DNA of 25,548 nucleotides, taken from NCBI GenBank assembly GCA_947085205.1, contig CAMTVO010000022.1, positions 1 to 25,548 of the forward strand, given 5' to 3'. The DNA is from an uncultured Nitrospiraceae bacterium (GTDB taxonomy: Bacteria > Nitrospirota > Thermodesulfovibrionia > Thermodesulfovibrionales > Dissulfurispiraceae). This document shows positions 1-1,813 of the stretch, piece by piece. Position 1 is the first letter of the stretch, and every line of letters starts with the position of its first letter. The position numbers were made by a program, and so were the translations under genes. The notes under the pieces are model-generated. The model was given only the letters and a program-made list of their open reading frames with translations. It did not search any database and had not been told where the DNA came from.

Positions 1-16
1 CAAAGAAATGATTCAA
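1..16 (-). CDS. 5' end of a gene running off the left edge (TTG-AAT-CAT-TTC-TTT-G, M-N-H-F-F-...); possibly an IS110-family DEDD recombinase
   Basis: SD GGAGGT at 28..23, 6-nt spacer, TTG at 16..14. MNHFF followed by a G-starting codon is compatible with the IS110 N-terminal '..FVGID' pattern. Only 5 codons are visible, so identity rests on the adjacent structured RNA. Confidence 0.35.
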
Positions 17-47
17 AGCAGCACCTCCGTAAAAAGTTATTTGAACA

Positions 48-215
48 AGGCAGGTGAAGCCTCCCGGCCAATCCTCCATGATGACAAGGGTTCAAAGACC
101 CAATCAACCTATTATGGCTATGGGAGGCAGGGAACAGACTCCGTTGAGGGTTCATTGACCCAGGTGATATGGAGTTCTCCTGCCTGTCCACCTTTAACGG
201 GTAAAACCCGTTCAT
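48..215 (-). ncRNA. Putative IS110 bridge/seek RNA (stem-loop plus two internal guide loops)
   Basis: Perfect hairpin AACGGGT-AAA-ACCCGTT (196-212). Loop B: stem 125-135/174-185 capped by GGGTTCATTGACCC (148-161). Loop A: stem 59-70/115-128 capped by GGGTTCAAAGACCC (88-101). Strand inferred from -10 box and gene orientation; a few G-U pairs would fit the + strand slightly better. Confidence 0.55.
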
Positions 216-221
216 ATAAAT

Positions 222-230
222 TTTATAACA
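222..230 (-). promoter_or_regulatory. Extended -10 element (TG-T-TATAAA) pointing into the structured RNA
   Basis: + strand TTTATAACA; would put the start site near 215, just before the 196-212 hairpin. No obvious -35. Confidence 0.4.
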
Positions 231-252
231 CATATTCTTAGTAGGAGGTTTT

Positions 253-414
253 ATGGAAAGGTGGAAATGCAGTGTATGCGGTTATGTATATGACCCGGAG
301 TATGGAGACCCTGATTCAGGCGTTGCACAGGGTACGCCATTTGAAAGTCTTACTGACGACTGGGTATGCCCTGTCTGCGGCGCATCAAAGGATATGTTTG
401 AAAAGGAAGTTTAA
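253..414 (+). CDS. Rubredoxin (53 aa; not in the ORF track)
   Basis: Manual translation [53 protein letters not shown]; two CxxCG knuckles, WxCPxC motif; SD AGGAGG at 243-248. Confidence 0.97.
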
Positions 415-442
415 CTGAGCAGTAAAATATTCAGGAGGATTT

Positions 443-928
443 ATGAATTCGATTGAGATTGCCATAAAAATGGAGACAGACGCCATAAAGTTTTATAACG
501 AGGCTGCTGAGAAATGCAACCATGTGGTAGGCAAAAAAATGTTTTTGTCCGTCGTTGAGGACGAAAAAAGACATCTTGATATGCTTTCGCAGTTACTTAA
601 AAAACTTGACCTGAAGATACAGGATGTCAGTCCCATGAAGAATGTCAAATCGATTTTTGAAGAAATGAAACATGAGATGATGGATCGGGTTGAGGCTACC
701 AAAGACGAACTTGAGGCATTTAATATTGCAATGGATATGGAAAAAGAGGGTATCGAATTTTACAAAAAAGCCGCCTCGGAAGCAACGACAGACAAAGAAA
801 AAAAACTGTTCGAAAGACTCATACATGAAGAAGAACAGCACTATGCTGTCTTTGCAAATACCTATTTCTTCATGTCCGATACTGGAAGCTGGTTTATGTG
901 GGAAGAGCACACCATTGTAGAAGGCTGA
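443..928 (+). CDS. Ferritin-like/rubrerythrin-family di-iron protein without a rubredoxin domain
   Basis: Duplicated helix pairs AIxME...FY...EDEKRH and AMDME...FY...EEEQH; SD AGGAGG. Confidence 0.9.
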   Translation: MNSIEIAIKMETDAIKFYNEAAEKCNHVVGKKMFLSVVEDEKRHLDMLSQLLKKLDLKIQDVSPMKNVKSIFEEMKHEMMDRVEATKDELEAFNIAMDMEKEGIEFYKKAASEATTDKEKKLFERLIHEEEQHYAVFANTYFFMSDTGSWFMWEEHTIVEG

Positions 929-945
929 ACGCCCTGGGCGTGATT

Positions 946-1012
946 TAGCTTATAGCTGATGGCTCTTGGCTCATGGTTTTGCTATGAACTATCAGCTATG
1001 AGCCATGAACTA
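946..1012. repeat. Inverted pair of 7-bp tandem arrays between convergent genes
   Basis: Left TAGCTTA TAGCTGA TGGCTCT TGGCTCA TGG (946-976); right GCTA TGAACTA TCAGCTA TGAGCCA TGAACTA (981-1012), reverse-complementary units. Confidence 0.9.
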
Positions 1013-1813
1013 TTTTAATCCCAATACATCCTGCATGTCATAAAGACCTGACTTTCTATTTGCAATCCACAAAGCAGCCTTTAACGCCCCTCTTGCAAAG
1101 GTATCCCTGCTTGATGCCTTATGCGTAATCTCTATCCTCTCGCCCAATCCTCCGAATAATACCGTATGCTCACCAACTATGTCTCCTGCCCTCACTGTCT
1201 GGATGCCGATTTCCTTTTTTGTCCTTTCACCGATTAATCCCTTTCTTGCATATACTGCAACATCGTCGAGGTCTCTGCTTACTGCATCTGCAATAACCTG
1301 AGCCATCTTCATTGCAGTACCGCTTGGAGCATCTTTCTTTAGTCTGTGGTGTGCCTCTACTATCTCTATGTCATATTCATTGCCAATAACTCTTGCAATG
1401 TCCTGCAAGACTTTTAAAAGGAGATTAACGCCCACGCTCATATTCGGCGCAAGGACAATCGGAATATACTTTGAAGCCACTTTAATTGGCTCTAATTCTT
1501 CTTTTGAAAATCCAGTAGTGCCAATTACCATTGCCTTTTTTCTTTCATGAGCTAACTTTACATGCTGCTGTGTTGCGCTTATGGATGTAAAGTCGATAAT
1601 GACATCGCAGTTATCAATAATATCTTCGAGCTTGTCTGTGAGTTTTATATTTGTCTCTCCAATCCCGACAATTTGACCAATGTCCTTGCCTATTGCATCA
1701 TGTCCTTTTCTTTCAACAGCGCCTGCAAGATTTAAGTCGTGATAATCCTTTGAAAGGGTGGTAATCCTGCTTCCCATTCTTCCTGTTGCGCCTGTAACAA
1801 TAATCTTTGTCAT
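1010..1813 (-). CDS. dapB: 4-hydroxy-tetrahydrodipicolinate reductase
   Basis: GATGRMG nucleotide-binding motif, VIGTTG, EAHHRLKKDAPSGTA, R-AGDIVGEH. Start set at ATG 1813 (SD GGAGGA 7 nt upstream). Confidence 0.97.
   Translation of the reverse strand: MTKIIVTGATGRMGSRITTLSKDYHDLNLAGAVERKGHDAIGKDIGQIVGIGETNIKLTDKLEDIIDNCDVIIDFTSISATQQHVKLAHERKKAMVIGTTGFSKEELEPIKVASKYIPIVLAPNMSVGVNLLLKVLQDIARVIGNEYDIEIVEAHHRLKKDAPSGTAMKMAQVIADAVSRDLDDVAVYARKGLIGERTKKEIGIQTVRAGDIVGEHTVLFGGLGERIEITHKASSRDTFARGALKAALWIANRKSGLYDMQDVLGLK

Follow-up and report, generated by a model that had tools for sequence, protein, structure and literature searches.

The first 247 positions of the window, by which we mean the whole 25,548-nucleotide stretch of DNA analysed, carry one end of an IS110-group element whose putative bridge RNA appears to direct it into Shine-Dalgarno (SD) sequences. 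Insertion rebuilds the SD from the element's own end, and on the explanation that we consider likely a frame kept open on the strand opposite the recombinase gene would relay ribosomes across the element to the host gene.

A reading made from the sequence alone had proposed that a gene cut off at position 16 encodes an IS110 recombinase, to be recognized by extending the contig leftwards. The window is the start of contig C22, and contig C24 opens with the exact reverse complement of window positions 1-141; the gene starts at window 16 on the minus strand, its remainder lies at C24:126-1316, and translation gives a full product of 396 aa. The product has the architecture of an IS110-group protein (300-460 aa), with an N-terminal DEDD domain (PF01548, E 2.5e-34) and a C-terminal Tnp domain with its conserved serine (PF02371, E 6e-28), and scores 219 bits against NF033542 (cut-off 140). 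It aligns with the PDB chains of the ISCro4 and IS621 recombinases; D9, E62, D105, D108 and the serine of its FQSG motif align with ISCro4, and the roles of the DEDD residues and the Tnp serine are described in PMC11208158. Close relatives that carry names come from Thermodesulfovibrionales and Nitrospiraceae records, which suggests a host from the same groups.

The sequence shows a complete element of the IS110 group, 1,426 bp long with core CT and a 396-aa DEDD/Ser recombinase, and window 247-17 is its left end. The features of this end and of the host locus are:

1-16, minus strand: first codons of the IS110 DEDD recombinase (TTG at 16-14, reading MNHFF), from the exact 141-base overlap and translation
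22-28, minus strand: strong SD of the recombinase gene (GGAGGTG at 28-22), read from the sequence and mostly retained in homologues
222-230, minus strand: extended -10 (TG-n-TATAAA), a predicted promoter element; TG-n-TATAA is kept in the close and sister groups
233-244, minus strand: left arm of a sub-terminal inverted repeat, matching the right-end arm at 9/12
246-247, minus strand: core dinucleotide CT, where the 1,426-bp element has its left boundary; homologue identity ends here and other flanks join here in runs X1 and X3
244-248, plus strand: rubredoxin SD GGAGG, remade from the left end, the core and one host base (sequence; empty allele in X3; empty site in relatives)
253-414, plus strand: host rubredoxin gene (PF00301), separated from its promoter by the insertion
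443-928, plus strand: host rubrerythrin gene (PF02915), next in the same direction

Matches to homologues cease at window 247-249, and the core CT lies at window 247-246 and at C24 1321-1322, the latter 4 nt past the recombinase stop codon. As in the IS110 group, the left end is long (231 nt, against 4 nt beyond the stop codon on the right) and holds the predicted RNA, and there is a short core at both ends with no further target duplication and a restored empty site; the RNA does not lie in a long right end as in the IS1111 group, which has sub-terminal repeats of 7-17 bp, and the repeat here is an imperfect one of 12 bp (9/12).

A contig of run X3 represents an element-free allele, joining the C24 flank to window 244, and in 11 of 17 rubredoxin loci of relatives (L009-L024, L222) the CNNM/CBS/CorC gene, which here is on C24, lies directly upstream of rubredoxin; on these two grounds we take the C22-C24 join to be real. 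Without the element the site consists of TTGACA, 17 nt and TACGAT, followed by GGAGG and ATG, which places a predicted host promoter in the right flank. The element is thus antiparallel within the SD of the rubredoxin-rubrerythrin operon, between this predicted promoter and the start codon, and its left end, read on the plus strand as GTAGGAG, rebuilds the rubredoxin SD.

Also in agreement with the sequence-only reading, the extended -10 on the minus strand comprises TG at 230-229 and TATAAA at 227-222; the suggestion that a circle junction would supply the -35 fits the computed junction, in which the right end offers TTGACT followed, after 18 nt, by TG-n-TATAAA, a candidate promoter. A promoter scan of window 1-1100 returned none at the left end on either strand at the scan threshold, and no circle joint occurred in the contigs, the material searched, of runs X1, X2, X3 and X16 (20 runs listed). 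In the single RNA run, a relative's contig covers 1-247 at depth 3.3, which reveals neither strand nor expression. Run X1 also contained an additional left-end variant joined to a different flank.

We have next to no doubt, on the comparison of homologous left ends, that the structure is an IS110 bridge RNA, and its predicted parts are:

43-214 (about), minus strand: predicted bridge RNA of ~170 nt, from the alignment and pair counts, its ends estimated from the positions of the -10 and the final helix
196-212, minus strand: 5' stem-loop of 7 bp with a 3-nt loop, absent from one subgroup of sister elements
43-54, minus strand: 3' arm of the outer stem, whose partner is 189-179 and which closes both loops (ensembles, pair counts)
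132-177, minus strand: target-binding loop, with stem 177-174/135-132 and capping hairpin 161-148 (alignment, pair counts)
59-128, minus strand: donor-binding loop, with basal stem 128-122/65-59 and upper stem 118-115/70-67 (alignment, pair counts)
114-102, 101-88 and 87-74, minus strand: left donor guide, hairpin and right donor guide of the donor loop, the guides read by eye against the element ends

Folding energy by itself is weak evidence, and the support for the RNA comes from homologues. The folding z-score was -1.06 for window 1-247 (29/200 shuffles equally good) and, for 40-214, -2.14 on the minus strand (5/200 shuffles) and -2.51 on the plus strand (2/200); since the two strands score similarly, folding energy does not pick between them. 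An Rfam scan of the window gave no match. We therefore relied on an alignment of 47 left ends, 21 of them close (64-100% protein identity) and 26 sister (48-58%), in which two modules of stem, internal loop and hairpin recur. Of their 34 stem pairs, 14 have changed on both sides (shuffle mean 7.1, 0/500 shuffles; kinship uncorrected), stem cells are paired in 92% of cases as against 37-59% when the partners are slid, and the guide columns vary. The stem covariation and loop variability looked for in homologous ends were thus both present, as were the perfect hairpin at 212-196, a length near the 160-170 nt first estimated, and the near-identical capping hairpins at 88-101 and 148-161 (12/14 bases identical, 60 nt apart).

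The structure as first drawn had a target loop at 125-185 and a donor loop at 59-128. These assignments stand in so far as the two loops match the flanks and the element ends, respectively, while the modules overlap at 125-128 and the target stem probably has, at its base, the 3' end of the RNA as pairing partner. The pairing 189-179/54-43 has a probability above 0.5 in 44 of 46 sequences, against 2 of 46 for the target-stem base as first drawn; the fold that includes it is 11.6 kcal/mol lower in this element (-55.9 vs -44.3 kcal/mol), and its own arms pair better than swapped ones (0/5000 for 39 distinct arm pairs; 19/5000 for the close clade alone). The target-stem base of the earlier reading is 99.6% paired in homologues and is RNAalifold's choice, and it conflicts with the donor-stem base. 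We model the RNA as probably a three-way junction, though it may instead switch between two folds. One left end (L189) has lost the donor loop through a 126-nt deletion that preserves the antisense frame described below.

Given its position directly upstream of rubredoxin, and a plus strand that folds too, the structure might have been a leader that regulates the rubredoxin operon or some host gene. The relatives' loci that are without it (the empty sites) contradict such a role, and the structure is found beside many unrelated genes, yet always with the recombinase or its remnant; we give a leader practically no credence.

The bridge RNA reading can be carried to the level of single bases in the target-binding loop, where two segments are of interest:

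162-172, minus strand: left target guide CCAUAUCAC plus core CU, whose reverse complement is the tail of an SD, a spacer and ATG
137-147, minus strand: right target guide plus handshake bases UC (138-137), with AACGGAG at 145-139

Reversed, the target guides spell GGAG-GTGAT-ATG, a complete SD and start codon, and from this and the comparisons below we conclude that the guide almost certainly targets the SD. The left guide with its core, CCAUAUCAC-CU, matches the left flank of this insertion at 7/9 positions, and AACGG-AG (145-139) is the exact complement of the core plus five right-flank bases. Among relatives, left guides matched their own flanks at 5.39 of 9 positions against 3.63 after permutation (49 insertions), and right guides at 4.65 of 7 against 2.33 (37 insertions), with 0/5000 permutations in each case; 10 loci in which no guide or terminus was found by patterns were skipped, and two sister rows (L216, L220) are seemingly misplaced by a few bases, which lowered their match. 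The match holds inside each clade (9/5000 for the close clade's left guides, 0/5000 for all others). The target-loop guides of this RNA therefore covary with the flanks, and this, with the element ends and the core CT, bears out the sequence-only reading of an IS110 left end with a bridge-like RNA. For a variant guide, GAAGCAG, which occurs in L117 and L128, a flank that fits (AAGCAG) is present in L030, from the same assembly as L029.

On the donor side, the donor agrees with the first handshake base in 40 of 41 cases, the match between left donor guide and right end contains one bulge and one wobble, and GGAG pairs with the core plus CC; this complementarity of the donor-loop guides to the element ends was read by eye, from a donor that barely varies.

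The flanks themselves separate the two clades. The right flank ends in GGAG in 31 of 34 distinct close-clade insertions as against 0 of 28 sister insertions, and a start codon 3-13 nt from the core opens a frame of at least 40 codons in 17/21 close but 4/28 sister cases; a motif search across all loci found a start codon and frame downstream of the left end in 25/29. Because the distance from core to start codon varies (5-12 nt), the SD side is the strict part of the target. The genes that follow the insertions are diverse, 16 of 23 having a Pfam family (HU, ribosomal L28 and shikimate dehydrogenase among them). In two close-clade elements (L120, L127) the right flank resembles coding sequence of another insertion sequence, not an SD; we take these insertion sequences to be of the IS3 family.

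By their published description, the seekRNA elements ISEc11 and ISEc21 have a non-coding region that guides target choice and a circle junction that creates a promoter, and ISEc21 targets IS3-family genes (PMC11187229), as L120 and L127 seem to do by their flanks. ISEc11 differs in being of IS1111 type with its RNA downstream, and that description gives no SD target for either element. The model element of the family is IS621, for which an excision circle, a junction promoter and RNA-guided recombination at CT are described (Durrant 2024, PMC11208160; Hiraizumi 2024, PMC11208158). In common with IS621, as described there, our element has a DEDD plus Tnp-Ser recombinase, a long left end, a 5' stem-loop followed by a target and then a donor loop, a CT core, a junction promoter (predicted here), handshake bases and a short sub-terminal repeat. 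The protein, however, is distant (396 aa; phmmer E 3e-13 over residues 229-386), the target is an SD plus start codon and not the REP described for IS621, the outer stem probably closes both loops, and the right end lies just 4 bp past the stop codon. This element also differs in its conserved antisense frame; the word 'antisense' is absent from the main text of PMC11208160.

That frame enters the window as a short open reading frame:

2-244, plus strand: 3' end of an antisense frame of 469 codons, which runs across both recombinase gene and bridge RNA, with stops TAG TAG at 239-244

A 77-aa ORF in this interval had been set aside as spurious, rightly as regards the minus-strand ORF from 233, which we rejected as a gene (ATG in 3/22 homologous flanks, open length 4-80 codons). 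The plus-strand 77-aa ORF at 8-241 is, though no gene itself, the tail of the conserved 469-codon frame and lies in register with the recombinase. The frame begins after the recombinase's last codon, and its terminal TAG TAG touches the rebuilt SD.

Codon counts indicate that the frame is very probably kept open by selection. TTA, CTA and TCA, the codons that place a stop in the antisense frame, were counted among all Leu and Ser codons with the last codon dropped. They number 1 of 1,834 in the 22 close genes that remained after dereplication and 250 of 1,566 in 22 genes of sister elements, whose targets differ, at similar GC (close 38-54%, sister 42-57%). Among 797 host frames of at least 300 codons the recombinase is the lowest in these codons, the median being 11.8 per 395 codons, and the chance of an open frame in this gene is P 1.6e-8 under host usage and 1.9e-5 under its own rate of A-ending codons. 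Of 24 left ends, 20 carry the frame through to the terminal TAG, at left-end lengths of 105, 231, 234 and 237, all multiples of 3; two further left ends had no findable terminus. In the remaining four (L105, L106, L121, L192) the frame breaks 50-157 nt early, and all four have a left target guide 1 nt shorter; L191 has one internal stop, and L123 and L124 one extra stop each.

It was reasonable to consider that the open frame is an untranslated by-product of selection on composition, for a purine-rich, C-poor RNA that avoids Rho. The antisense strand does resemble host mRNA (purine 0.55, C below G, against 0.47 in the sisters) and has fewer C-rich windows (3.7% vs 14%), although T-runs were not seen to be depleted on the read-through strand. 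A- and G-ending codons are all reduced in the close clade, which favours T- and C-ending ones, and the antisense frame lacks a clear initiation signal: its first in-frame ATG, kept in 35/36 right ends, is 40 nt beyond the host SD, and no clear SD precedes it. (An ATT 13 nt past the host SD was rejected as a start codon, its conservation being accounted for by the inverted repeat.) Composition does not explain, however, why only the three antisense-stop codons drop to zero while other A-ending four-fold codons remain at 5-23%; TTA and TTG stand at 0:113, with AAA (485) and AGA (349) abundant and GAA and CAA likewise common. Nor does it explain why changes in left-end length are multiples of 3 in 20/24, or why the two His codons that give an antisense ATG are CAT in 23/23 and 26/26 cases, when the sisters have CAT in 19/33 at one of them. 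We regard a by-product of composition as quite unlikely.

That the frame encodes a working protein we regard as still less likely. In intact copies the length, counted from the first ATG, is steady at 459-462 aa, which would suit a protein, as proposed for IS900 Hed. The antisense protein sequence, on the other hand, is not conserved beyond what the recombinase forces: amino-acid divergence in matched bins, frame-bearing elements against frameless sisters, was 0.35/0.28, 0.41/0.42, 0.49/0.52 and 0.60/0.67. Three of three antisense proteins belonged to no NCBIfam or Pfam family, save one match at E 0.058, and an Atlas search with one of them gave no usable match.

IS900 of Mycobacterium avium subsp. 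paratuberculosis is nevertheless instructive. It is described as an IS110-family element of 1,451 bp with target CATG-N6-TCTCCTT, whose hed, an opposite-strand ORF spanning the element, is a gene of unknown function (PMC8141618). Compared by description, the two elements share a similar size, a target made of a start codon and an anti-SD, and an element-spanning opposite-strand ORF, here of 469 codons in an element inserted antiparallel at translation initiation signals. The host of IS900 is GC-rich, and open antisense frames arise easily there. Here, by contrast, such frames occur at GC 28-54% with a sister group as control, there is no constraint on the protein, and the frame has its stop at the rebuilt SD. 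By analogy, hed may be a functional precedent for the antisense frame.

By the steps known from IS621, excision would give a circle whose junction unites -35 and -10, the RNA would be made, and the recombinase would put the circle into a new SD. Once the element is in place, transcription from the host promoter would cover 1.4 kb of its antisense strand; ribosomes would run along the open frame, shield the RNA from Rho, halt at the TAG next to the rebuilt SD and begin again on the host gene. The selected property would be translatability, not the antisense protein. Polarity through Rho is established, and the host carries a Rho-N match. If the host gene is still expressed, insertion at the very abundant SD sites would cost little. 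More speculatively, the antisense transcript, lying opposite the bridge RNA and the recombinase mRNA, may damp transposition. We think it fairly likely that the function of the frame is such a ribosome relay, keeping the host gene expressed; counting against it are the want of a good start signal, the 4 of 24 left ends that break the frame, and the small number (2-3) of independent switches.

The main rival is an ordinary IS110 element that targets SDs merely as abundant sites, the host gene being lost or transcribed from an outward-facing promoter within the left end, with some other role for the frame. In the SD clade a plus-strand TATAAA (here at 215-220) and AT-rich stretches close to the terminus are common and could belong to such a promoter, and remnants with ~25-35 nt of left end (L246, L253) persist before genes. 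The scan found no plus-strand promoter at its threshold in 1-1100, the -35 for the TATAAA is 3/6, and an outward promoter leaves unexplained a frame that ends exactly at the rebuilt SD, so that we hold this rival to be unlikely.

If relaying ribosomes is what keeps the frame open, frame and target should change together, and SD targeting and the open frame do appear to have switched in step, 2-3 times over the tree. The close group forms a single branch, with support of 92 on a quick tree and weakly (83/77) on a careful one. A phylum-wide search, in which 70 loci were examined and then 10 more, brought four deeper elements (L302, L303, L304 and L325; 35-43% identity, GC 28-40%) with SDs in their flanks and 0 antisense stops among 60-79 Leu and Ser codons, L304 being without its right end and L325 without its left; L324 (28% identity, GC 64%) has the same appearance. 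Sisters that do not target SDs fall between these deeper SD elements and the close group, and AU tests reject a single clade for either state (p 0.005 and 0.007; 26 rows). The best tree needs 3 trait changes, of which strong branches force 2, too few for a sign test and with long branches present. Trait labels were assigned after earlier trees had been seen, and the count of independent pairs used one combined label for both traits and so yields only a number of contrasts.

Other elements bear on the association. Four copies on one contig (L285-L288, G008:C1) are IS1111-like with a long right end, which rebuilds GAGGAGG ahead of the host ATG; they are co-oriented at gene starts and their frame is closed, with 19 antisense stops, as the relay model expects of co-oriented insertions. 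L322 and L323 may resemble them. Open antisense frames also occur where no SD target was shown, at GC 52-68% (L256, L266, L269, L297, L298). Two of these elements, L297 and L298, are IS1111-like (26% identity, GC 52-56%) with element-spanning antisense frames of 479-482 codons, and their relative L301 lies near an SD with its frame closed. Distant IS110 elements (24-33% identity, mostly Bacillota) had no SD target among the flanks listed and 3-46 antisense stops, and no relative of L303 was found in viral contigs.

The bridge RNA and recombinase described here thus belong to a known class, from a distant lineage, with guides that can be read. What is added is a case on statistical grounds, made in low-GC elements against a sister group that has been retargeted and so serves as control, for a transposon antisense frame kept open for itself, which makes the long-open role of IS900 hed testable. 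In the literature searched, no paper connected the guide of a bridge RNA with SD targeting or with an antisense frame that counters polarity; SD-type targets may be listed in supplementary material, for instance in the target-motif table of PMC11208160. We lean towards the view that some IS110 lineages are translationally transparent insertions, with a frame that would be junk but obligatorily open, gained or lost as the guide is retargeted. Such a property would suggest how an RNA-guided element uses thousands of gene starts without silencing them, and would be useful for expression-neutral insertion. If true, a few guide bases would be coupled with codon usage throughout an entire gene, and IS900 hed, whose function is unknown, would have an explanation.

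Several further observations concern smaller or decayed elements and the rest of the window. A second, partial recombinase copy (3' end; G000:C10 104580-104982) is cut off at the contig end and again has an SD as its right flank, and G000:C20 80999-81229 gives a weak PF01548 match (E 4.7e-5), probably a decayed IS110. L007 (G008:C1, about 1907075-1907320) is a 241-bp element that has left end, bridge RNA and right end but lacks a recombinase; it lies in front of a ferritin-like gene, at that gene's SD, and is a non-autonomous miniature with no start-to-end relay frame. The remnants L246 and L253 keep only the part of the left end with the rebuilt SD, before long host genes. Repetitive inverted sequence (TCATGG/CCATGA and AGCTAT/ATAGCT units) fills window 929-1012 between the convergent rubrerythrin and dapB genes, with a terminator-like hairpin at 929-941. 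Housekeeping genes occupy window 1010-25504: dapB, yacG, apbE, uvrA, DUF3108, formate-tetrahydrofolate ligase, molybdopterin oxidoreductase, glnD, tamB/Omp85, 2-oxoacid oxidoreductase subunits and a prolyl-tRNA synthetase-like gene.
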